Of a stretch of 64,000 bases of DNA, positions 22,237-53,156 are shown piece after piece. The notes beneath the pieces are model-generated. The model saw only the letters and a list, made by a program, of their open reading frames with translations. It did not search any database and was not told the DNA's origin. A program made the translations under genes and the position numbers. This DNA is from an uncultured Candidatus Bathyarchaeia archaeon (GTDB lineage Archaea; Thermoproteota; CALKCG01; B24; DRYS01): the NCBI GenBank assembly GCA_964491605.1, contig CAZBGY010000003.1, positions 24,678-88,677 of the forward strand, in the 5' to 3' direction. The first letter of the stretch is position 1, and each line of letters opens with the position of its first letter.

Positions 22237-22324
22237 GCGGGGGTAGCCAAGCTAGGTCTAAGGCGCGGGACTGAGGCTCCCGTGGGGTAGCCCTTCGTGG
22301 GTTCAAATCCCACCCCCCGCACCA
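22237..22324 (+). tRNA. tRNA-Leu (anticodon GAG), encoded CCA
   Basis: Acceptor GCGGGGG/CCCCCGC; anticodon stem CGGGA/UCCCG with loop CUGAGGC; long variable arm; T-arm GUGGG-UUCAAAU-CCCAC; 3' ACCA. Confidence 0.8.
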
Positions 22325-39867: not shown

Positions 39868-41106
39868 ATGGTCAAACTCAGATTTTATGGTGGTGTCGAA
39901 GGATCCATAGGTGGAAACCAGATAGTGCTAGAGGATGAAAGTGCTACACTACTCCTAGATTTTGGTTTAAACTATCGTCTATGGTCTAGCTATTTCGAAT
40001 TCATATTTTCAGAACCTGAGAGTATAGAGGAGGTTATCCGTGTAGGTTTAGCCCCAGATCTACAGGCCATAGATTCTATCGATGCATGCCTTATATCGCA
40101 TGCGCACACCGATCACTGGCGTCTTATAACGATGCTACCGGAAGGTTCACGCATCCTTCTAGGTGAATGTACTTATAGGATTATAAGCGGCTGGTCTAAG
40201 CGTGTGAGAAGGAGGACCCTACTATATCGTACATCCCATCTTAGATTCGATACTTTCAGGACAGGATCCACCATAAGAGTTGGGGGAATTGACATCAAGC
40301 CTATAAGCGTAGATCACAGTATACCTGGGGCGTACGGCTTCCACATATATACTCCATCGGGTTTGATAGTATATACGGGTGATTTCAGACTTCACGGTAG
40401 GTTTAAGCCTAGGATAGATCTATGCGAGGGGATAGAGGACCGGGTATCGCTTCTAATATGCGAAGGAACGAACGTAGGTAGGCTTGTAGAACCTACGAGC
40501 GAAAGCGATGTGGATGCTAGAGCCTCCAGCATAATACGGCGGTGTAGAGGCTTAGTTATAGTGGATATAGCCCCGGCGGATCTAGATAGATTAAACACGA
40601 TGGTAGAAGTAGCGCGTAAAGTCGGTAGGGAAGTTTTATGCAGTGGTAGAATTATGGATACGGTTACGGATCTATCCAGTGATAGATCCTTAAAGGTTCC
40701 GAGGATAGGTGACGATGTGAAATCCTTTGAAGAGTTTAAAGATGATTGCATGCGGAGTCCTGAGAAGTATATGTTGGTTACATGCTTATACAGCGAGAGA
40801 GAGGTTAGAAGAATTAAACCCCCTCCTGGAAGCATCTATCTCTTAAGCTGTTCAGAGCCCTTCGAGGAGGAGAGGGAGATAGCGTTCAACCGCCTCTTGA
40901 ATTGGCTGAATACATTCGGTGTATCTATATACCATATACATTCATCCGGACATATATACCCCATCGATATACGTGAGATAGTCGAGAAAATCAAACCTAA
41001 AGCCGTAGCAGCGATACATACAGAGTATCCAGATGCATTCAGATCACTTCTATCCGATCTAACTAAAGTCTATACGTTCAGGAGAGGAGATGAACTTAAA
41101 ATCTAA
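39868..41106 (+). CDS. MBL-fold/beta-CASP hydrolase (archaeal RNase J-like)
   Basis: HAHTDH motif; downstream Asp/His motifs; C-terminal HSSGH beta-CASP-like motif; 412 aa. Confidence 0.5.
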   Translation: MVKLRFYGGVEGSIGGNQIVLEDESATLLLDFGLNYRLWSSYFEFIFSEPESIEEVIRVGLAPDLQAIDSIDACLISHAHTDHWRLITMLPEGSRILLGECTYRIISGWSKRVRRRTLLYRTSHLRFDTFRTGSTIRVGGIDIKPISVDHSIPGAYGFHIYTPSGLIVYTGDFRLHGRFKPRIDLCEGIEDRVSLLICEGTNVGRLVEPTSESDVDARASSIIRRCRGLVIVDIAPADLDRLNTMVEVARKVGREVLCSGRIMDTVTDLSSDRSLKVPRIGDDVKSFEEFKDDCMRSPEKYMLVTCLYSEREVRRIKPPPGSIYLLSCSEPFEEEREIAFNRLLNWLNTFGVSIYHIHSSGHIYPIDIREIVEKIKPKAVAAIHTEYPDAFRSLLSDLTKVYTFRRGDELKI

Positions 41107-41920: not shown

Positions 41921-42811
41921 GTGGATCGTATACGTATATCTACACCTACAGGTCTCTGTAGAGCTTTAAGATCGATAGTATCTACGAATCCATCGACTAT
42001 AATCATATGCGATATCGCCTTAGATACAGGCCATATAGGCGAACTTATAGATCTAATAAGAGGTCTACCACCTGGATGCTCGGTATGCTATATCGATCAT
42101 CATCCACCACCGTCAGGATTCCCCCCATCAGATCTAGATAGATTAGAGTATAGGTATAGATCAGGTGTATCAGCGTCCCAACTTGTATATGAAGCGTTAG
42201 GTGAACCCGATGATAGGATCTCTAAGATGCTTATGGTGTACGGTGCGATAGGCGATATGTGCGATGACTCCCAGCTAGTCAGGGAAATATTGAGTCTATG
42301 GGATAGACGTCTCATATACCTTGAAGCAGGATTCATAGTTGAAGGATTGATATCTAGAAGAGATCAGGCTTTCATCGATAAACTCATAGATAGGCTAGCA
42401 CAGGGGAATCCTCCTAGCAGTATACCTGAATTAGTATCGAGCTGTCTTAAAACCTTAAGCGACGAGTATAAGGTCTACAAGTATGTCGAAGAGAACGTCA
42501 CGGTTAAGGGTAGGATAGCTATCGTATCGAAAATACCTATAAGCGGTTTCGGAGGTAAAGCTGCAAACTACGCTCTAGCATGCACTAAAGCCGATGTAGC
42601 TATAGCAGTAACCGTGAATAAAGGTATAGCTCACATAAGTTTGAGGAGTAGGAATCCTATGATAGATCTAAACGATCTAGCACGTAGATTATCCACAGCT
42701 CTAGGAGGCTATGGCGGGGGGCATCCACAATCCGCTGCGATGCGAATACCGGCTTCCAGGATGGAGGAGTTATTGATGTTCATGGAAATAGCTCTATCCG
42801 GTATAAGCTGA
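41921..42811 (+). CDS. DHH/DHHA1 phosphoesterase (NrnA-like)
   Basis: DHH motif region (YIDHHPPP) and C-terminal GGGH DHHA1 motif. Confidence 0.65.
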   Translation: MDRIRISTPTGLCRALRSIVSTNPSTIIICDIALDTGHIGELIDLIRGLPPGCSVCYIDHHPPPSGFPPSDLDRLEYRYRSGVSASQLVYEALGEPDDRISKMLMVYGAIGDMCDDSQLVREILSLWDRRLIYLEAGFIVEGLISRRDQAFIDKLIDRLAQGNPPSSIPELVSSCLKTLSDEYKVYKYVEENVTVKGRIAIVSKIPISGFGGKAANYALACTKADVAIAVTVNKGIAHISLRSRNPMIDLNDLARRLSTALGGYGGGHPQSAAMRIPASRMEELLMFMEIALSGIS

Positions 42812-42885: not shown

Positions 42886-43983
42886 ATGAAGATAACTATA
42901 TCCGTTATAAAAGCCGATGTAGGATCCCTAGCTGGGCACCATATAGTCTATCAAGAGCAGATAGAGCTTGCTAAGAAGATTTTAGAGAAAGCTAAGGATG
43001 ACGGTTTGCTGATAGACTACTACGTATTCAACGCCGGCGATGATCTAGAACTTGTAATGACCCATACTAAAGGTGAATCTAGCCCTGAGATCCACGGCCT
43101 AGCTTGGAATGTATTCAAGGAAGTGACGGAGAAGGTTTCACGTCCTAGAAAACTGTATGCCGCAGGCCAGGATCTACTAAGCGAGGCATTCTCAGGTAAC
43201 GTTAGGGGTATGGGGCCTGGAGTAGCCGAGATGGAGATAGAGGAGAGGAGGAGTGAACCTATAATAGTCTTCGCCGCTGATAAGACTGAGCCTGGAGCAT
43301 GGAATCTACCTCTATACAGAATATTTGCCGATCCATGGAACACAGCTGGGTTAATCATAGATCCAGCCTTACATCAGGGTTTCGTCTTCAGGGTTATGGA
43401 TGTAATCGAAGGTAAGACGATAGACCTGAAGACACCTGAAGAAGCATACGATCTACTAGCTTTGATAGGTACTACAGGGAGGTATATCATAGAGAGAGTA
43501 TATAGAGCTGATGGATTACTAGCAGCTGTAGCTAGCGTGACAAGACTAAGCTTGATAGCAGGTAGATATGTAGGTAAGGATGACCCTGTATGCATAGTCA
43601 GATGTCAGCATGGCTTACCAGCTGTCGGAGAAGCTTTAGCCCCATTCTTCACACCACACTTCGTAGCAGGCTGGATGAGGGGGTCACACTACGGACCGCT
43701 AATGCCTGTAGGCTTAAAGGATAGTAGATGCTCATTCTTCGACGGACCACCCAGAGTGGTAGCACTAGGATTCCAGCTAGCTGAAGGTAGGCTAATAGGA
43801 CCTGCCGATCTCTTCGAAGATGTAGCATTCGACCATTCACGTAGAATAGCTCTACAGATGGCTGAACTTATAAGAAGGAATGGACCTATAGCACCGGCTA
43901 TACTAGGACCGGAAGAACTCGAGTATACAGGTATAAAGGAGACTCTACAGCGCCTAGCATCTAGATTCAAATCTGAGAAGTAA
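42886..43983 (+). CDS. fbp: Fructose-1,6-bisphosphate aldolase/phosphatase (class V FBPase)
   Basis: MKITISVIKADVGSLAGHH N-terminus, characteristic of the archaeal bifunctional FBPA/P; 365 aa. Confidence 0.9.
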   Translation: MKITISVIKADVGSLAGHHIVYQEQIELAKKILEKAKDDGLLIDYYVFNAGDDLELVMTHTKGESSPEIHGLAWNVFKEVTEKVSRPRKLYAAGQDLLSEAFSGNVRGMGPGVAEMEIEERRSEPIIVFAADKTEPGAWNLPLYRIFADPWNTAGLIIDPALHQGFVFRVMDVIEGKTIDLKTPEEAYDLLALIGTTGRYIIERVYRADGLLAAVASVTRLSLIAGRYVGKDDPVCIVRCQHGLPAVGEALAPFFTPHFVAGWMRGSHYGPLMPVGLKDSRCSFFDGPPRVVALGFQLAEGRLIGPADLFEDVAFDHSRRIALQMAELIRRNGPIAPAILGPEELEYTGIKETLQRLASRFKSEK

Positions 43984-44155
43984 CTAAATATACATATTCA
44001 CGTCAATATAGTCCAACCTATATTTTTCCCCTATGGATACAGCCATTACATCTAACTACACTTCTCTGTAGTTATCACACTAAAAGCGTTTCCAACAGAC
44101 TTAAATCTAAAACCTAGATGAAACATTAGAATCGCCGGTCGATAGGCGATACCCC

Positions 44156-44425
44156 GTTACATCTCCATCGCGATCCTGTAGAGATATAGCGGTGGAGACG
44201 TAACAGTGGACAGCCTCCTCCCCCCGGAGGGGGAGATCTACCGGGGGGATCTCCCCCTGGGAGACTGCCCACTGTTATGCCTCCGCTACTATATCTCTAC
44301 AGGATCAAGGTGGAGATGTAGCCTTCAGGAACCCCTAGGTCCCCCGCCTAGGAGTTCCTGAAGGTAGGGGATGCTTACAATTAACCGTAGGCTCCGAAAC
44401 CGGAGCTGAAGGTTAGTTGTAAGTC
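44156..44425. repeat. Compound palindromic element: about 54-bp imperfect inverted arms (44156-44209 / 44269-44322) around GC-rich hairpins, followed by two further long hairpins (44322-44364, 44373-44425)
   Basis: The reverse complement of 44269-44322 matches 44156-44209 at most positions. The centre is CTCCCCC-CGGA-GGGGGAG and GGGGGGATCTCCCCC. The second hairpin is CCTTCAGGAACCCCTAGG...CCTAGGAGTTCCTGAAGG. The third is GCTTACAATTAACC...GGTTAGTTGTAAGTC. Confidence 0.6.
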
Positions 44426-44498
44426 ATGGAGGAAACTCCTATCGCCTGACAAACGGCGTCTACCTTCTAAGTAAATCGATGCGGATCTGAAGGATATT

Positions 44499-44762
44499 CT
44501 AGATGGATCTTAGTTCCTGTTGGCCTCTACCCGTGAGCTTCCACATGGATGGCCTCTCAGATATTCTTACAATTATACCATCCTGCTCCATCTTCCTAAG
44601 CTGTTTTAACGTTGCTGAGTAAGATCTACCCACCGCTCTAGCTATAGTACTTGTATCGATTAACCCTTCCTTCAAAGCCTTCACTATAAGGCTGCGTGTT
44701 TCAAGCCCCTTCTTTACGTTTCTAACGGTAGCTAGGTAAGATCTCGCTTCATATCCATCCAT
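44499..44762 (-). CDS. Small winged-helix DNA-binding protein (MarR/TrmB-like)
   Basis: 87 aa; a predicted HTH (TSTIARAVGRSYSATLKQLRKMEQDGII) followed by a wing. Confidence 0.45.
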   Translation of the reverse strand: MDGYEARSYLATVRNVKKGLETRSLIVKALKEGLIDTSTIARAVGRSYSATLKQLRKMEQDGIIVRISERPSMWKLTGRGQQELRSI

Positions 44763-44857
44763 CTAGATCTACTTAACCTCCGATAGTATGAATGTTTATT
44801 CCGGTATCTTAACGTTTATCTCTAGCTTTAGGTATCTATCAATCGTGGTTTCGGTTT

Positions 44858-45880
44858 ATGTCTAGGAGGATACTTGATGGTGATGTTATCTATAGTAGGG
44901 ATGGATTCATATTCTATGTATTCGGCTACGAACACCCGCCAGATAGAGCTATAGCATTCCTTAAGTATATCCCAAAAGAATACTCTGATAAGCTTAATCT
45001 GGAGTATCTAAAGTACGAATGGGTGTTTAAGGGAAGGAGGTATGTTAGACCTGCTTCGCTCTATACGGCTAGCAACTATCAACGTATAATAGAATTCTTC
45101 GAAAACTATTACCCAGACTATGTATACGATTGCCATGTAAACGGTAGAAAGCTTATAGCAGTCCCTAAAGATTTAATCGAGGAAATCTACTATCCGGATG
45201 AGGGGCTACGTAAGATTCTAGGTATCAGCTCGCTTCCACCCATATACAAGGTTTCGGTGGAGCTTATCGAACTTATCTCGAGAACATCCGGTATCGGCTT
45301 AGAAAATTTCGGTTTACATGGATCGCTCCTTCTAGGTATGGAGTCTGAGAAGCCCGATATAGATATAGCCGTCTACGGATGGCAGAACTACCGTACGATT
45401 AAACAGACTCTCATGGAGTTGGAAGCGAAGGGCTATCTAAAGATCCTCTACGAAACTCCTACAGATTATAGAAGGAGGAATAGATGTATCTTCAGGAACT
45501 ATAGAGCTGTCTTCAACGCTATACGTAAACCTTGGGAAGTTCACGATATATACGGATCCGTGATACGTAAATCGGTTAAGCATGTAAGATTTAGGACAAT
45601 AGTTAGAAACGCTTCTGAATCGATATTCCGTCCAGCCATATACATAATACAGGGATACACGCCTTTAGATGAATCCTCACGCATAGATAAGGAGGATATT
45701 CCGTGGCTTCTAGTATCGATGGTAGGAGATTATAGGGATGTGATCGAGGAGGGCTCTGTGATAGAGGTCGCAGGTCTACTTGAAAGAGAGTATCTACCAG
45801 ATGGCAGGCCGTATAGGACTAGGGTTATTGTAGGTTCGGGTTTAAGAGATGACGAATATATAAGTGTAGTGAAGGAGTAA
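44858..45880 (+). CDS. Nucleotidyltransferase-fold protein, paralogue A (unknown family)
   Basis: Pol-beta-type motif [24 protein letters not shown] in the middle of the protein; conserved N-terminal domain G-x-I-F-x-V-x-GY-x-HPPD shared with the next gene. Confidence 0.45.
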
Positions 45881-45885
45881 ATCGT

Positions 45886-46956
45886 ATGTCTACGAGGCTT
45901 AGAGATAGAGATTATATCGTCGGAGCCGAGGGTATAATCTTCAGGGTTTTAGGCTACTTCCACCCTCCAGATGGCTATATATGCGAGCCGGAGTATGCAC
46001 CTAAAAGGATATTCACATCCGAAAATCCTAGAGCACTTAGAGGCTACCCTGAAATATCATACTTCAAATTCTATGGAGATGAAGGGTTAAGATTCGTAGA
46101 GGAGAATTATCCGTCGTATCGTCTATACGTTAAACCTCTTAAAACATACCTCGTAGGCGTTCCCAATAATCTTATCGCAGCTGTTAGGAAACCGCAGGAT
46201 AGGCTAGCTAAGATCATAGAGGAAAGCTACAGAGATAAGCTTCTAGAGGATACCCTCGATATCGTGGAGATCGTATGCGAAAATGCAGAGCTCAACCTCT
46301 CTAGTCTAGGCGTTTTCGGATCGATTCTACATGAATTTTATAACCCATTCCTATCGGATATAGATTTAGTAGTTTATGGGTCGAAGAATACTATTAAGCT
46401 TATGGAATGCTTATCCGAGCTGTACAGTGGAAGAGACAGTCCTCTTAGGAACGAATATGATTTCCCTGTGGAGAAAGCTAGATGGATCTTTAGAAACTAT
46501 AGCTTTAAGGAATACATCTTTCATGAAAGAAGGAAGATGATATACGCTAAGTATTGGGATGGGAGTAGATGGGTTAAAGTCGAGTTCGAACCTGTTAGGG
46601 ATTATGACGAATACCATAACGAATACATGGATGTAAATTCGATAGAGAAGATCGGATGGGTTAAACTCGAATCTATCATTGTAGATGATAGTGGGGTATA
46701 CTTTATGCCAGCTACATACGGGGTTGAAGTAACGAAGCTTATATCAGGTCCTAAGGAGGCTTTAGAGGCTTCTAAGATAATATCCTATATCGATGAATTC
46801 AGGATTCAAGCCTGGAGGGATGAAGAAGTCTACGTGGAGGGGATGCTTGAAAGAGTCGTTAGGAATGATGAAGTGGAATATCAGGTTTCCATAACATACT
46901 GCGATAGGTATGGAGACCAGGTTCTTAAGCTTAAGAAGATACCAGGTAGATTATAA
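45886..46956 (+). CDS. Nucleotidyltransferase-fold protein, paralogue B (unknown family)
   Basis: LGVFGSILHEFYNPFLSDIDLVVYG motif; N-terminus MSTRLRDRDYIVGAEGIIFRVLGYFHPPDG aligns with paralogue A; shared IFRNY and G(L/M)LER motifs; 5 nt intergenic gap. Confidence 0.45.
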   Translation: MSTRLRDRDYIVGAEGIIFRVLGYFHPPDGYICEPEYAPKRIFTSENPRALRGYPEISYFKFYGDEGLRFVEENYPSYRLYVKPLKTYLVGVPNNLIAAVRKPQDRLAKIIEESYRDKLLEDTLDIVEIVCENAELNLSSLGVFGSILHEFYNPFLSDIDLVVYGSKNTIKLMECLSELYSGRDSPLRNEYDFPVEKARWIFRNYSFKEYIFHERRKMIYAKYWDGSRWVKVEFEPVRDYDEYHNEYMDVNSIEKIGWVKLESIIVDDSGVYFMPATYGVEVTKLISGPKEALEASKIISYIDEFRIQAWRDEEVYVEGMLERVVRNDEVEYQVSITYCDRYGDQVLKLKKIPGRL

Positions 46957-46993
46957 GCCATACATTTTTTAGTATCCTCTACACGAGGGTTAA

Positions 46994-47680
<687 letters not shown>

Positions 47681-47713: not shown

Positions 47714-48388
47714 CTACGGTACTATCATCGTTCCTCTAACGTTTTTCCCTTCCAACGCATACCCGACTATATCTGGGTTTAAACCGTTAACGATCATGCA
47801 TTTGATAGGTTTAAGCCTGAATAGTCTGGGGAAGAATCTATCCACGCATACCTCTTTAAGCTTCTCCAACTCCGAAACGCTTACGATAGGCATAAACTCT
47901 GCTTCAGGATGGATCCTAGGATCCATTCTGTAAACCCCATCCACATCCTTCACCAGTATAAGTTCCTCGATATCCCAATCCTGAGCTAACTTTAAAGATA
48001 TCGAATCCGATGTCACATCCCAACTTTCAGGTAAATCCCTTAACTCCTTCAACCCGTATACCTCTAATATGGGAGTATAACCATCTACCCATAATCTCTG
48101 CGCTTCACTTAAACTCGAAGCCACCCTACCGTTAGGTATAAGGTACGCTAGGAGTAGACCATAGATATCCATAGATTTTACAGCCATCCAATGGGATATA
48201 CGGTTCGATAAATCGAGAAGCCTATCTATATACCTAACGGAATCTGCGAATATACCTCCACCTGGAATTACTAGGAAGGATCTAACCCTACGATTCGATA
48301 GAAGCCTACATAGCTCTACGAGTTTACTTGGATACCTCAATAAGCTGCCGCCCAGCTTAATTATACACTCTATAGCTCCGGATCCCAA
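47714..48388 (-). CDS. Amino-acid-kinase-family protein (COG2054-like archaeal kinase)
   Basis: IKLGGSLL N-terminal motif; about 224 aa; overlaps the next gene. Confidence 0.5.
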   Translation of the reverse strand: MGSGAIECIIKLGGSLLRYPSKLVELCRLLSNRRVRSFLVIPGGGIFADSVRYIDRLLDLSNRISHWMAVKSMDIYGLLLAYLIPNGRVASSLSEAQRLWVDGYTPILEVYGLKELRDLPESWDVTSDSISLKLAQDWDIEELILVKDVDGVYRMDPRIHPEAEFMPIVSVSELEKLKEVCVDRFFPRLFRLKPIKCMIVNGLNPDIVGYALEGKNVRGTMIVP

Positions 48389-49455
48389 TATATCCTCCTA
48401 CCCTCTAAATACGAGGCTGCAAGGAAAGCTAAACCTACAGCCGGAGTCATTATAGCTACATCTCTACGAGTGATACTACTAAGTCTAACAACTGGTCTCA
48501 ACCCCGCCTTCACAGCAGCTTCAGCGGCTAGGAAATCTTCACCTAAACCTGTGGCGATACACGGTATATCTTCGACACCGTAATGTTCCCTCATCCTCTC
48601 AGCCTTCCTCTTCAAGCTTGAAGCTATAGCTTCAAGCTGCTTCTCATAGAAGTATCTAGCTATAGACATTATATCCTCCATATCGAGGGTTTTAGTATCT
48701 GCACACACAGTTCTTGCGATACGGCTGGCAGCTTCCTCCTTGGATAAACCCCTACCATCGGGAGTATCGCACGTATAGTCTTCGATCGATATAAAGCCTA
48801 ACAACAGATATACATCACCCGTTTGAGCGAAGTATTCGCTGCTAATGTTAATCCATCGATCCTTGAGACTTATCCTGGAAGCAATAGTTGCTAGATTCGT
48901 CCTTAAAGCACCTGTATAGACGAGTTCGTATAGTTGTAGCTTCTCTAAATCTGTGAAACCTTCAGCTTTAACTTCACCCATCGCCACCGGTACTATGCTC
49001 GTCGTGGTACTACCTACATCCACTAGTATACATAGATCGAAGAACTGTGACGCAAACCATCCTGATGCATACCAATTCGAAGCTGCCACCTTGTACGGAT
49101 CCTCTAAGGCGTCATCCATACTTAGCAATCTACCGCTACAATCTAGAACCCTAATATCTACATCTCTGAAAATTTCGAGTACAGCATGACATATAGCGGC
49201 CACACCTTCATCCTTAGATCTGAATATGTCGGATAGCTCCCCGGTCATAGTTAGAGCAACCATATCAGGCTCCCCCCAATTCTGTAGAGTCTCTAGAGAA
49301 AGGATCTTCAATGTAGATGGAAGCTCCGAAAGCCTCTTCCAGAGCGGTAGGTAACGTATACCAGTCGATAGGCTTACAGCTCTCCCCCTGTGAACGTTTA
49401 AAGCTGCGATCTTAGTATTCGCTCCACCTACGTCGATACCTATAGTTAGGGTCAA
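48370..49455 (-). CDS. Hydantoinase/ASKHA-like protein (COG1548-type, methanopterin-pathway associated)
   Basis: N-terminal IGIDVGGANTK ASKHA phosphate-1 motif, and a second DVGSTTT motif. Confidence 0.5.
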   Translation of the reverse strand: MTLTIGIDVGGANTKIAALNVHRGRAVSLSTGIRYLPLWKRLSELPSTLKILSLETLQNWGEPDMVALTMTGELSDIFRSKDEGVAAICHAVLEIFRDVDIRVLDCSGRLLSMDDALEDPYKVAASNWYASGWFASQFFDLCILVDVGSTTTSIVPVAMGEVKAEGFTDLEKLQLYELVYTGALRTNLATIASRISLKDRWINISSEYFAQTGDVYLLLGFISIEDYTCDTPDGRGLSKEEAASRIARTVCADTKTLDMEDIMSIARYFYEKQLEAIASSLKRKAERMREHYGVEDIPCIATGLGEDFLAAEAAVKAGLRPVVRLSSITRRDVAIMTPAVGLAFLAASYLEGRRIYWDPEL

Positions 49456-50600
49456 TCTAGCTTACCCCTTATATCTAGGAGATCAACCCAGGCATCTCTT
49501 AAACTATAACCGAAACCTGAGATTAAGCTATAGCCGTCTATAGATGCTATAAGCCTATCATCCATATGTAAGCCTACATCTAATGCAGCCTTCCTAACCT
49601 TTAGGAAAACTGAAAAACCTCTGAATTCATTAAATATATCCATCTCTCGAAGTTTACCATATACAGCCGCCTCTAATACGACTTCAGCTGGATTTCTCCT
49701 GTAGCTTCTACTTAAACCGATATATGAGACAGTTAATCTAGGATTAACCTCGATCACATATACTTCACCGCCAGCTATAACCGTATCGACGCCTACATAA
49801 CCTTTCAACCCATGTAGAAGAACCTCCAGCTTATCGATAAGCTCATCCATATGGATGTAAGGTAATATCAACGGTACATATCCCCCGAAGTAAGATGAAC
49901 CAGTATATGATAGATTTACGAATTGACGGTTAATCGATAAAGGCTTCAACGAGCACCCATTTGATATAAGCGAAAGGCTTGAAGCTAAACCCTTCACATA
50001 TTCTTGAACAATCCATAATCTATCGCGATGTCTAAGAAGTTTCTCAGCCTCACCACGATCCCTTACTACACGTAAACCGCTACACCCAGCTTCCAACCTA
50101 GGTTTAACTATCAGAGGGTAACCGAGCTTATCCAGATCTTCTAAAGTAACCTCATCTAAATCGATCGATCTAGGAGTTTTCACACCCATTCTCGAAAGTT
50201 CATAGTAGAGATCTAGCTTATCGATAATTCTATCCAGCGTATCGATACACCCATTAGCTATTATCGACGATCCGTATTCATCCTCTATTCTATGGAGTAT
50301 GGAGGATAGGAAGCCGTTTGTCTCAGGCGCTATAACGTAAACCTTATCGAAATCCAGTTCACCTATCCAGTACAGTATATTCTCTATACATGAATCCTTA
50401 AGGTAGATCTTACGGCATGGTAGTATGGAGTCGGGTAGATTGACTACAAGCTTTCTATCCACAACAGTATATAGATCGACCCAACTAAGCTTAGATACAT
50501 CTACAGAAAATCTCCTAAGCATAGAGAAGCCTTCGATTAGAATCGAGGGTGGGGCATCGATTAAACCAGCCGTTAATGCTTCTACTAAGAGAAGCTTCAA
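49452..50600 (-). CDS. ATP-grasp ligase (COG1821-type)
   Basis: GYPLIVKPRLEAGCSGLRVV ATP-grasp core and IEVNPR motif. Confidence 0.5.
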   Translation of the reverse strand: MKLLLVEALTAGLIDAPPSILIEGFSMLRRFSVDVSKLSWVDLYTVVDRKLVVNLPDSILPCRKIYLKDSCIENILYWIGELDFDKVYVIAPETNGFLSSILHRIEDEYGSSIIANGCIDTLDRIIDKLDLYYELSRMGVKTPRSIDLDEVTLEDLDKLGYPLIVKPRLEAGCSGLRVVRDRGEAEKLLRHRDRLWIVQEYVKGLASSLSLISNGCSLKPLSINRQFVNLSYTGSSYFGGYVPLILPYIHMDELIDKLEVLLHGLKGYVGVDTVIAGGEVYVIEVNPRLTVSYIGLSRSYRRNPAEVVLEAAVYGKLREMDIFNEFRGFSVFLKVRKAALDVGLHMDDRLIASIDGYSLISGFGYSLRDAWVDLLDIRGKLD

Positions 50601-50702: not shown

Positions 50703-51434
50703 TTGATAGTTATACCTGTGATAGACGTTATGAACGGCTTAGCGGTTCATGCTGTTAGAGGTGAGCGGAAAGCGTATAAACCGTTAGAGAGCATCTTATC
50801 CAAATCCACGGATCCGGTGGAGGTAGCATCGATATTCTCGAGTATAGGATTTAACCATATCTATGTAGCAGATCTAGATGCTATAATTCATAGGATGCCT
50901 TCATGGAGTTTATACTCGAAGTTGAAATCCGTAGTCAGATATCTCATGCTCGATAACGGTGCTAGATCATATAGAGATTGCATGAAGCTTTTAGATCTAG
51001 GTATAGATTACGCTGTGATCGGAACCGAGACGTTCGAATCTATGAGTGAGCTTAAGAACCTCTTAGAAGCTTATGCTGATAAGGTTATCATAAGTGTTGA
51101 TCTTATGCATAACCAGATACTTTCACCTATACAATCTGTGAGAATATTGCGTGTAGATGAATACCTGAGAATCCTACACGGATTCGGTCTTCGTTCAGCT
51201 ATAATACTAGAACTCTCGAGAGTAGGATCCGGTTTAGGTATCGATACTGATATGATGAATATGATAGGTAGATTAACGCCGCTGGTCGATAAGCTCTATG
51301 TAGGGGGAGGCGTTAGATCTATCGAAGATATAGAGGTATTGAAGGAGATCGGTGTCTACGGTGTTCTCATAGCTACAGCTCTGCATAAAGGATGGGTAGC
51401 GATAGAAGGTCTAAGAAGTAAAGGATATCTCTAA
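50703..51434 (+). CDS. HisA/HisF-like TIM-barrel protein (COG1411-type)
   Basis: IIPVIDV...G..V N-terminus; YVADLDA and GGGVRS phosphate-binding motifs. Confidence 0.55.
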   Translation: MIVIPVIDVMNGLAVHAVRGERKAYKPLESILSKSTDPVEVASIFSSIGFNHIYVADLDAIIHRMPSWSLYSKLKSVVRYLMLDNGARSYRDCMKLLDLGIDYAVIGTETFESMSELKNLLEAYADKVIISVDLMHNQILSPIQSVRILRVDEYLRILHGFGLRSAIILELSRVGSGLGIDTDMMNMIGRLTPLVDKLYVGGGVRSIEDIEVLKEIGVYGVLIATALHKGWVAIEGLRSKGYL

Positions 51435-52037: not shown

Positions 52038-53156
52038 ATGAATAGAGTGGGCCTAGTATATGATAAGCTGACATCGGATGAGGAGGAAATAATACTGGAA
52101 GCTGAGAGGAGAGGCTTCCAACTCAGATATCTATTTGTTAAGAACCCTGTACAAGCGTATCTTCCAAGTTCTAAGCTTATAGATCTACCGGTTGTATTCA
52201 ATAGATGCGAGAGTAAGAGAAGAGCTCTAGAGGCAGGCAGGATAATCGAGGATAACGGTATACCTGTAGTAAATCCTTTCAAAGTTGAGTATCTATGCGC
52301 CGATAAGATAGAGACTTTAAAGTTATGGTTTAATAACGGTATAAATACACCTAGATGGGTATACGCATCTTTTACGGGGAGGGATGGATTTCTCGATAGC
52401 GAGATCGAAGATATAGCCGATGAAATCGAGAAGTTAGGGTATCCTATCGTAGTTAAACCTACTATGGGGAGCTGGGGTAGGGGAGTCGTGAAGATAGATG
52501 ATAGATGCAAGCTTATCGAGGCTCTACGTAATTCTCATCCATCACCTATAAATCCGGATGGATTCTTCGCTCAAGAGTATGTAGAGAAGCCAGGGTTCGA
52601 TCTACGTATACTCGTAGGTCTCAAACCTAGAGGTGATATTAAAGTTTTATGCGGAATAGCACGCATATCTCCATCACCTAAGGAGTTTAGAACTAATACT
52701 CATCTTGGCGGTATACCACTCGGGCTTAAACTAGATGAAAATTCGAAGATAGTCAAAGAAGCGGTGGATGCTGGTAAAATCCTACTGAATGGGTGTAAGT
52801 GGGGTGTGATAGCGTTGGACGCCATGCCTGATGCTAGAGGTGTAGATTACAGCATGATTTATAGGTATGTACCTGAATGTAATAATCTATTCCAGCAAAT
52901 TAGGAGACTTGTAGAGGAGAATAAGCAGTATAGATATAGATCTTGGAAACACCTTCTAGAGGATGCCTTCTTAAAATACAAATCTTCTGAAGCATATATC
53001 AAGATGGAGGCGATCGTACATGAAATCCTAGAGTTCTGCAAACTTAAATGGCATGAAGCTAATTCTAGGTTCGATTACGCGGTGAATACTCGTAACGCTT
53101 CGGGTTTCAACCCGGCTAAATTCTACCTAGATATAGCTGAAGATTTAGCTTACTAA
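52038..53156 (+). CDS. RimK-family ATP-grasp ligase (MptN/LysX/CofF-like) with C-terminal extension
   Basis: GYPIVVKPTMGSWGRGV ATP-grasp motif; preceding pre-ATP-grasp domain; 372 aa. Confidence 0.55.
   Translation: MNRVGLVYDKLTSDEEEIILEAERRGFQLRYLFVKNPVQAYLPSSKLIDLPVVFNRCESKRRALEAGRIIEDNGIPVVNPFKVEYLCADKIETLKLWFNNGINTPRWVYASFTGRDGFLDSEIEDIADEIEKLGYPIVVKPTMGSWGRGVVKIDDRCKLIEALRNSHPSPINPDGFFAQEYVEKPGFDLRILVGLKPRGDIKVLCGIARISPSPKEFRTNTHLGGIPLGLKLDENSKIVKEAVDAGKILLNGCKWGVIALDAMPDARGVDYSMIYRYVPECNNLFQQIRRLVEENKQYRYRSWKHLLEDAFLKYKSSEAYIKMEAIVHEILEFCKLKWHEANSRFDYAVNTRNASGFNPAKFYLDIAEDLAY

Follow-up and report, generated by a model that had tools for sequence, protein, structure and literature searches.

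The DNA analyzed here, a stretch of 64,000 nucleotides from contig CAZBGY010000003.1 of an uncultured Candidatus Bathyarchaeia archaeon (hereafter the window), carries between fbp and tpiA a non-coding gap, a winged helix-turn-helix (wHTH) gene on the opposite strand, and two co-directional genes designated A and B. This layout of open reading frames (ORFs), summarized in Table 1, had been outlined in an initial annotation of the window and was corroborated by the ORF map and the profile matches. The annotation had interpreted the block as an insertion carrying a pair of nucleotidyltransferase (NTase) genes with a dedicated regulator. In this study, we describe the A-B pair, its relatives and their gene contexts, and a 326-nt structured RNA gene lying in the gap.

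Table 1. Positions of the features in the window and, where another locus is named, in related loci.
Feature	Locus	Position	Strand	Basis or remark
fbp	window	42886-43983	+	ORF; FBPase_3 match, 573 bits
Non-coding gap between fbp and wHTH gene	window	43984-44498		515 nt
TATA-box-like element CTTAAATC	window	44100-44107	+	~30 nt upstream of the RNA; read from sequence
326-nt structured RNA gene	window	44133-44458	+	Minimum free energy (MFE), covariation
RNA, P0	window	44133-44137 with 44454-44458
RNA, conserved internal loop	window			GGUCGAU opposite GACAAAC
RNA, P1	window	44143-44151 with 44440-44448
RNA, P2	window	44158-44320		Long forked arm, the palindrome of the initial annotation
RNA, P3	window	44321-44365
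RNA, P4	window	44371-44427
RNA, P5	window	44428-44439
wHTH gene, 87 aa	window	44499-44762	-	HTH_5 match, 25.4 bits (cut-off 22)
Divergent wHTH/A intergenic region	window	44763-44857		95 nt
Gene A, 340 aa	window	44858-45880	+	ORF
Gene B, 356 aa	window	45886-46956	+	ORF; start 5 nt past the A stop codon
tpiA	window	46994-47680	+	TIM match, 157 bits
MfnE-like kinase, TIGR03123/MfnF-like protein, MfnD-like ATP-grasp ligase	window	47714-50600	-	NCBIfam; in the neighbourhood of the block, outside it
HisA/F-related gene	window	50703-51434	+
RimK/MptN-like ATP-grasp gene	window	52038-53156	+
RNase J-like beta-CASP protein	window	39868-41106	+	5' of fbp
DHHA1/RecJ-like protein	window	41921-42811	+	5' of fbp
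tRNA-Leu(GAG)	window	22237-22324	+	Rfam, gathering threshold
FolK fused to C-type unit	L092; L093	5626-7143; 1559-3076	+; +
ECF S-component-like gene	L017; L097; L096; L003	8103-8921; 5974-6672; 8014-8736; 3441-4208	-; +; +; -
159-aa protein	L072	4401-4880	-	Directly 5' of A
CdvA, ESCRT-III/Snf7, Vps4 and MobB	L019; L029; L052	2571-3737; 868-1599; 118-855		Few kb upstream of A-B-C
Additional segment between wHTH gene and A	L024; L051	4625-4973; 4465-4719		250-350 nt, partly GC-rich

The full-length alignment of A and B (27% identity, E = 6e-21), together with the ORFs themselves, established the two as true paralogues in tandem, as had been claimed. The motifs that the initial annotation had quoted were all found in the translations, namely an N-terminal motif present in both proteins and reading EGIIFRVLGYFHPPD in B, the catalytic motif (HGS-x10-DIDIAV in A and FGS-x11-DIDLVV in B), and IFRNY, common to both and accompanied by GLLER in A and GMLER in B. 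Both proteins thus display hG[GS] followed about 10-13 residues on by [DE]h[DE]h, as in the Pol-beta-like nucleotidyltransferase superfamily. Among 218 ORFs of the family classified herein (74 A-type, 82 B-type and 62 C-type, C being a third paralogue described below), G-x-GS and D-x-D were 100% conserved in every class, and the E at position 242 of B was also kept in all three. With regard to a third catalytic carboxylate, the NE (189-190) and ExE (233/235) pairs invariant in B are not common to A or C; the second position of the acidic ExE pair (E235 in B) is occupied by N in A and by R in C, a point in which the family differs from the rest of the superfamily.

In the profile searches, B matched NTP_transf_2 (PF01909) with 24.2 bits (cut-off 21) and A reached just 17.3 bits with Polbeta (PF18765; cut-off 26.9), and Pfam and NCBIfam recognized in both proteins solely a stretch of 40-80 residues around the catalytic motif. 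Sequence and profile searches of the PDB with A and B gave no relevant match and none to an NTase family, and no strong match to a characterized housekeeping NTase family was obtained in Pfam, NCBIfam or the PDB. Homologues of A numbered 133 at E <= 1e-3, nearly all from Bathyarchaeia with others from Helarchaeota and Promethearchaeota; protein searches likewise assigned the window to Bathyarchaeia. A family profile searched against 1.84 billion representatives matched 1023 clusters at the same threshold. The full-length proteins among the matches listed were of ~330-370 aa and aligned over most of the profile, and the names attached to the family matches went nowhere beyond "hypothetical" or "predicted nucleotidyltransferase". 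Their source organisms were Bathyarchaeia, Helarchaeota, Promethearchaeota and Ca. Methylarchaceae, and the additional paralogues encountered in the loci of other lineages were confirmed by the all-family profile.

An AlphaFold2 model of B built with 40 homologues (predicted local distance difference test score, pLDDT, 94; predicted template modelling score, pTM, 0.90) comprised an SH3-like barrel (residues ~1-100), a Pol-beta nucleotidyltransferase core (~105-240) and an OB fold (~250-350), i.e., a beta-rich N-domain, an alpha/beta core bearing GS...DxD and a C-terminal beta-barrel. The alpha/beta palm fold of the modelled core was superposable on known Pol-beta-like members, including TENT2, Pol beta/lambda/mu, terminal uridylyltransferases (TUTases) and CD-NTases, and its closest structural neighbours were the RNA-tailing enzymes TENT2/GLD-2, CutA, TUT4/7, Cid1 and TUT1. 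The C-domain of the model was akin to SSB, RPA, Pot1, editosome OB proteins and the anticodon-binding domains of aminoacyl-tRNA synthetases, and the N-domain weakly to Sm, Hfq, KOW and MazF barrels. These resemblances were at the level of single domains without any whole-chain match, the best Foldseek hit in the PDB having E = 0.03, and neither the N-terminal barrel nor the C-terminal OB fold corresponded to a Pfam or NCBIfam family or, as a whole, to a solved chain. As far as the model indicates, an architecture made up of a barrel, an NTase core and an OB fold is novel for the Pol-beta superfamily, and the initial suggestion of an NTase family without assigned function and with an unusual three-domain layout was in good agreement with these results, the profiles matching the catalytic motif only.

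The profile, PDB and fold searches also supported the view that the proteins belong neither to the minimal NTases nor to the CCA-adding enzymes or the canonical CD-NTases. A class I CCA-adding enzyme (~440 aa with head, neck, body and tail) was rejected on the lack of any PDB NTase-family match and of a whole-chain fold match. Unlike the CD-NTases of cyclic-oligonucleotide-based antiphage signalling systems (CBASS), B has a C-terminal domain modelled as an OB fold rather than a helical lobe, and there was neither an effector, HORMA/TRIP13 or Cap partner nor a PADLOC CBASS match. In MntA/HEPN pairs the NTase is of ~100-150 aa, whereas A and B are three-domain proteins of 340 and 356 aa and the neighbour of each is its own paralogue instead of a HEPN gene; the MntA model scored 13 bits against a cut-off of 60. 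TENT2/GLD-2, Cid1, TUT4/7 and CutA differ in sequence (9-14% identity) and in the metabolic context of A and B, and the PAP-associated helical domain is replaced in the B model by the OB fold and the SH3-like barrel.

To delineate the distribution of the pair, relatives of B were sought in one genome per GTDB species and were found in 406 stretches of these species-representative genomes. The proteins of the window were mapped onto the best 80 of the 406 loci, almost all of them labelled Bathyarchaeia/Bathyarchaeota, plus loci from earlier searches. A lay directly 5' of B at almost every locus mapped; 42 loci had the order A+ B+ C- and 25 the order A+ B+. In 48 of 65 loci, there was a 10-nt overlap between the end of A and the inferred start of B, and the ends of B and C were usually only a few nucleotides apart. 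The initial annotation had suggested a search for co-occurring pairs in other archaea, and the A-B pair was found throughout Bathyarchaeia, usually with C after it. A clustered trio of paralogues is carried by most members of the class. No C-type gene was present within the 64 kb of the window.

We refer to the group of the window as G1 and to a second lineage as G2; the A and B proteins of G2 share only ~46% identity with those of the window. A relative with A and B ~90% identical shares the fbp...tpiA layout, and the order in G2 is fbp, a gap of ~460 nt, the wHTH gene (-), A and B, followed by a Ham1-like gene in place of tpiA. Since G1 and G2 formed an exclusive clade in the neighbour-joining trees of both A and B, the order fbp-RNA-wHTH-A-B has a single origin and was passed on by inheritance thereafter; only in 13 loci, all of them G1 or G2, did fbp and the wHTH gene stand beside A-B. 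The G+C contents of A (0.42) and B (0.41), with a third-position value of 0.42 for both, were similar to the window mean of 0.424 and to those of the neighbouring genes, and the A-B element was single-copy within the window. The claim of a 3 kb insertion between fbp and tpiA was thus not sustained: the cluster occurs in G2 without tpiA, the pair is Bathyarchaeia-wide and its composition is native. A and B are best explained as two co-translated members of a vertically inherited, uncharacterized enzyme family.

We next consider the genes that accompany the family. The genes past tpiA in the window constitute a methanofuran/methanopterin cofactor neighbourhood (MfnE-, MfnF-, MfnD-like, HisA/F-related and RimK/MptN-like genes; Table 1), in which TIGR03123, the "probable H4MPT-linked C1 transfer pathway protein" (C1, one-carbon), scored 326.9 bits (NCBIfam cut-off 244), and the MfnE (118 bits) and MfnD (84 bits) matches each lay under their own equivalog cut-offs. 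Clustering of neighbours across all the loci examined identified as recurrent partners in the main Bathyarchaeia lineage CdvA, ESCRT-III, Vps4, MobB, a 159-aa protein, an S-component-like protein of energy-coupling factor (ECF) transporters, a CitG-family protein, FwdB and FwdD. FwdB (568 bits), FwdD, Mch or Ftr, and a folate-type ECF S-component-like gene recurred near A-B-C. Among the 54 main-lineage loci with enough sequence downstream of B, 41 had a CitG-like gene 0.85-3.9 kb downstream of it on the same strand; these CitG-like proteins (PF01874, 227 bits) had diverged to 38% identity. No CitG-family gene was found in the window.

Outside the main arrangement, similar contexts appeared in a variety of gene orders. 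L097 contains the co-directional run FwdB-FwdA-FwdC-Mch (425 bits)-MptN-like-CitG-like-ECF-S-like-B12 radical SAM-family member, which faces a convergent Ftr gene (398 bits), the Mch and Ftr scores both exceeding their curated cut-offs. In L094 (Helarchaeota), two tandem members of the family adjoin MptA (TIGR00294, 266 bits; cut-off 220) and an MptH-like DHPS-like gene (TIGR00284, 343 bits; cut-off 257), and in L096, a member has MptA, DUF447, RFAP synthase (TIGR00144, 173 bits; cut-off 114), DUF1464 and a Pterin_bind gene on its upstream side. In L098, FwdD-FwdB-FwdA come after a pair of members, and in L095, three members come after an ATP-grasp gene. In the distant member P0373 (L092 and L093), FolK (HPPK, 149 bits) is fused to a whole three-domain C-type unit, and downstream of the fusion follow a dihydromethanopterin-reductase/AfpA-like flavoprotein and an MptH-like DHPS-like TIGR00284 gene. 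The contig of this fusion looks bacterial, as it carries MacB/FtsX and GntR-aminotransferase genes. At least seven different gene orders showed the cofactor association, and the associated genes extended beyond catabolic C1 enzymes to biosynthetic ones (MptA, MptH-like, RFAP synthase, CitG-like and MptN-like), MptA and RFAP synthase being established methanopterin enzymes (PMC8305020, PMC6787355).

This reading of the neighbours agrees with published work on methylotrophs. Their "archaeal-like" cluster includes Orf9, Orf21 and Orf22, homologues of MfnF, MfnE and MfnB (PMC8141765), and mch-orf5-orf7 are part of the tetrahydromethanopterin (H4MPT) cluster (PMC3615186). The Methylomonas gene past mch and a glutamate ligase has been annotated as triphosphoribosyl-dephospho-CoA synthase (PMC11533326). 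The Mch/ATP-grasp/CitG-like order of L097 is the same as that in the methylotroph clusters, and judged by its position, the CitG-like gene corresponds to orf7 (PMC3615186, PMC11533326). Our literature search gave no link of methanopterin biosynthesis to a nucleotidyltransferase or to CitG.

In view of this recurrent context, we tentatively propose that the A/B family may work in the biosynthesis or tailoring of a tetrahydromethanopterin-type C1 carrier, possibly at a phosphoryl- or nucleotidyl-transfer step to which no enzyme is known to have been assigned. Methanogenesis, anaerobic methane oxidation and the archaeal Wood-Ljungdahl pathway all use tetrahydromethanopterin as their C1 carrier, and methanopterin contains an alpha-ribosyl 5-phosphate joined through a phosphodiester to 2-hydroxyglutarate. 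CitG/MdcB use ATP to make an alpha-linked 5-triphosphoribosyl product, and CitX/MdcG, a DxD transferase, joins this product to a hydroxyl with loss of pyrophosphate (PPi). By analogy with this use of the CitG/MdcB product by CitX/MdcG, a family member might act late, after the CitG-like enzyme, on the ribosyl-phosphate/phosphodiester part of the methanopterin side chain, an assignment that we hold with less confidence than the general one. In such a reaction, the GS...DxD site would bind a Mg-triphosphate, and a hydroxyl or phosphate would attack the alpha-phosphate with release of PPi; A and B would probably form a hetero-oligomer or perform consecutive half-reactions. The analogy draws on the CitG-family gene that accompanies A-B-C or, in L097, lies co-directional with a family member, and on the DxD transferase motif, with the proposed order of a CitG-like product followed by a phosphodiester. 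The family differs from CitX/MdcG in its domain layout, the acceptor (a methanopterin intermediate or hydroxyglutarate) is hypothetical, and no acyl-carrier-protein, citrate-lyase or malonate-decarboxylase gene was seen at any family locus. If the proposal holds, the family would provide concrete, assayable enzyme candidates for a long-open gap in methanopterin biosynthesis, and the family would offer a first handle on the cofactor form made by Bathyarchaeia and some Asgard archaea.

Several observations weigh against this assignment. Recurrent clustering and fusion with tetrahydromethanopterin biosynthesis genes was found, but with C-type members and not with A or B: the non-Bathyarchaeia members in methanopterin clusters are all C-type, sharing 41-55% identity with C and 25-30% with A/B. 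Because these clusters hold C-type members only and the window has no C, the argument reaches A and B by way of paralogy and the tight A-B-C cluster, to which the flanking cofactor genes in the window and the CitG-like gene elsewhere may be added. The contexts of four loci (L086, L087, L088 and L089) showed no cofactor genes. No match to the Pfam profiles of CitX/MdcG was obtained even at E <= 10, whether for A, for B or for two members of the C type, and the fusion with FolK could be a sign of an early step in pterin synthesis instead of the favoured side-chain step. The OB and barrel domains, as modelled, would suit a nucleic-acid substrate. No family member from a cultured organism was among the named matches, and if classical methanogens lack the family, any step shared with them must there be carried out by a different enzyme. 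Moreover, the late side-chain enzymes of methanopterin (for ribitol reduction, the alpha-ribosyl phosphate and the hydroxyglutarate phosphodiester) are, in light of the work of R. H. White, not known to have been assigned, and the literature search gave no confirmation of this gap.

The "large palindromic element" noted in the block was revealed to be real and far beyond chance, but it is one arm of a multi-helix RNA of 326 nt and not an isolated structure. The segment 44158-44320 forms a forked hairpin of 54 bp, and the full RNA had an MFE of -219 kcal/mol (z = -19.5 vs dinucleotide shuffles). In five G1 sequences, 35 of the 134 predicted pairs showed compensatory double changes, and 95% of the cells paired, vs ~42% when the partners were slid by 1-3 columns; the observed covariation was reached by none of 500 shuffles. 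G2 carries a homologous RNA of 275 nt with the same five-arm plan. The closing helix covaries between the groups, AGGCGAU/AUCGCCU in G1 being replaced by AGGUAGCG/CGCUACCU in G2, and the internal loop is common to both (GGUCRAH opposite GAYAAAC). The excess of G-U over A-C pairs (52 vs 25 in G1 and 57 vs 6 in G2) supports encoding of the RNA on the + strand, and UUCG, GAAA and GCAA tetraloops, which the 275-nt G2 version carries and shares with that of G1, likewise read on this strand. The G+C content was 0.564 in the RNA vs 0.322 in the upstream spacer. The TATA-box-like element CTTAAATC is a putative promoter of the RNA gene as judged by its sequence and position; the stretch around it, TTTCCAACAGACTTAAAT, is conserved in five of five close relatives, and a CTTAAAA box lies at a similar distance from the RNA in G2, a CTTAAA box ~30 nt ahead of the RNA being conserved.

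Among 4227 Rfam models, no family was found for the 326-nt RNA, and the window gave only chance hairpins of miRNA models far below their gathering scores; a scan of the RNA homologue in L003 gave nothing. Permissive Rfam scans of both RNA versions and a gathering-threshold scan of the whole window ruled out RNase P RNA, signal recognition particle RNA, riboswitches and other described families. A miniature inverted-repeat transposable element (MITE) or other repeat was also ruled out, since the window holds a single copy of the terminal motif pair, relatives have it at the syntenic site only, and the stems change by compensatory substitutions. A K-turn in the conserved loop, considered by hand, misfitted the G-A/A-G register, and the GA step is absent in G2. 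A metagenome pattern scan for lengths between 275 and 326 found no further relatives, its one match being a chance hit in an AT-rich coding region. A general link of the RNA to A-B was not supported: among the loci examined, searches for the motif and for intergenic regions of unusual stability located the RNA in the 13 G1/G2 loci only. The 326-nt element is a real, unclassified RNA gene separate from A-B, and adds a well-supported member to the very few large structured RNAs of archaea that have no known function. It shares with the bacterial OLE, GOLLD, ROOL and raiA RNAs a long, multi-helical, covarying and lineage-restricted architecture, and differs from them in being archaeal, in being confined so far to one clade and in giving no match to their Rfam models. 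At gathering thresholds, the sole RNA of the window recognized by Rfam was tRNA-Leu(GAG).

The proximity of this RNA bears on the main rival to a cofactor role, namely that A/B are terminal nucleotidyltransferases for RNA (or single-stranded DNA), in which the OB fold and the N-terminal barrel would hold a single-stranded 3' end while the Pol-beta core adds nucleotides; in this clade, the 326-nt RNA might serve as substrate or partner. The structural neighbours of all three domains described above are in line with this view, as is the well-supported RNA gene that 13 loci carry on the same strand, ~400 nt upstream. However, at more than 60 other Bathyarchaeia loci neither the RNA nor a comparably structured intergenic region lies within ~6 kb of A-B, the recurrent neighbours are cofactor genes and not RNA-processing genes, and the B model lacks the helical substrate-binding domain of TENT/PAP enzymes, so that we consider a tailing function quite unlikely. 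A narrower version, in which the RNA and the A/B proteins of the G1/G2 clade form one ribonucleoprotein system, seems very improbable to us. In that case the OB and barrel domains might hold the invariant terminal loop of the RNA (GGUCRAH opposite GAYAAAC) and the nearby 3' end, with A/B nucleotidylating the RNA, or the RNA might scaffold or regulate A/B. The RNA and the wHTH gene have kept their place beside A-B ever since the two lineages shared an ancestor, and the paralogue C, usual elsewhere, is missing from the G1 and G2 clusters. If true, the RNA and A/B would be a new archaeal ribonucleoprotein enzyme, possibly linking a structured RNA to C1-cofactor metabolism.

The family might also act on another small molecule or on a protein, as in antibiotic-type nucleotidylation or protein AMPylation, with the cofactor neighbourhoods reflecting nothing more than a high density of C1-pathway genes in these genomes. 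Many Pol-beta NTases do nucleotidylate small molecules or proteins and several loci have no cofactor genes nearby, yet an association that recurs in at least seven gene orders, includes a physical fusion to FolK and involves biosynthetic neighbours rather than catabolic C1 enzymes only makes this explanation unlikely in our view, though not far-fetched. The initial annotation had instead suggested a signalling, defence or toxin-like system, considered here as a mobile module of the CBASS or MNT type with its own regulator placed between gluconeogenesis genes, and the kinship of the wHTH to the HTH of Csa3 and CasR would be compatible with it. Against such a module, conservation and vertical inheritance of the A-B cluster extend across the class, with G1 and G2 as one clade in both trees, a native composition, a single copy in the window and no tpiA downstream in the sister lineage. 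PADLOC and PHROGs scans returned only the generic NTase motif and no defence system, no effector, HEPN or other defence partner was found at A-B, and the recurrent neighbours are C1-cofactor genes. We thus regard this possibility as largely refuted and exceedingly improbable. The role in tetrahydromethanopterin-type cofactor metabolism accordingly remains our preferred, if tentative, proposal for the family.

The 87-aa protein encoded divergently from A-B is a winged-helix protein of the ArsR/TrmB/Csa3-HTH type; in addition to HTH_5 (Table 1), it matched HTH_24 with 21.9 bits (cut-off 21.9) and, more weakly, TrmB. The "dedicated regulator" of the initial annotation accompanies the pair solely in the 13 loci of the G1+G2 clade, where it probably regulates transcription of the A-B operon. 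The intergenic region between the wHTH gene and A was 86% conserved among close relatives, and it includes a block of strong conservation, GGTATCTTAACGTTTATCTCTAGCTTTAGGTATCTATCA, in which GGTATCT is repeated. By its sequence and location, this block is a candidate promoter and operator of the A-B operon. Two G2 loci have additional sequence between the wHTH gene and A, which is absent from the other G2 loci (Table 1).

Further neighbours recurred at the family loci. In the main Bathyarchaeia lineage, the 159-aa protein is encoded directly 5' of A on the opposite strand, with equivalents in 41 loci; it gave no significant Pfam or NCBIfam match, and its position roughly equals that of the wHTH gene in the clade of the window. 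The ECF S-component-like membrane protein, with weak folate-family or riboflavin-type matches, adjoins NTase-family members in four different arrangements and could be a pterin transporter or another uncharacterized partner. The genes for CdvA, ESCRT-III/Snf7, Vps4 and MobB lie a few kb upstream of A-B-C and have equivalents in 32-38 main-lineage loci, a neighbourhood that probably represents plain synteny. In the window, genes for an RNase J-like beta-CASP protein and a DHHA1/RecJ-like protein are located 5' of fbp.

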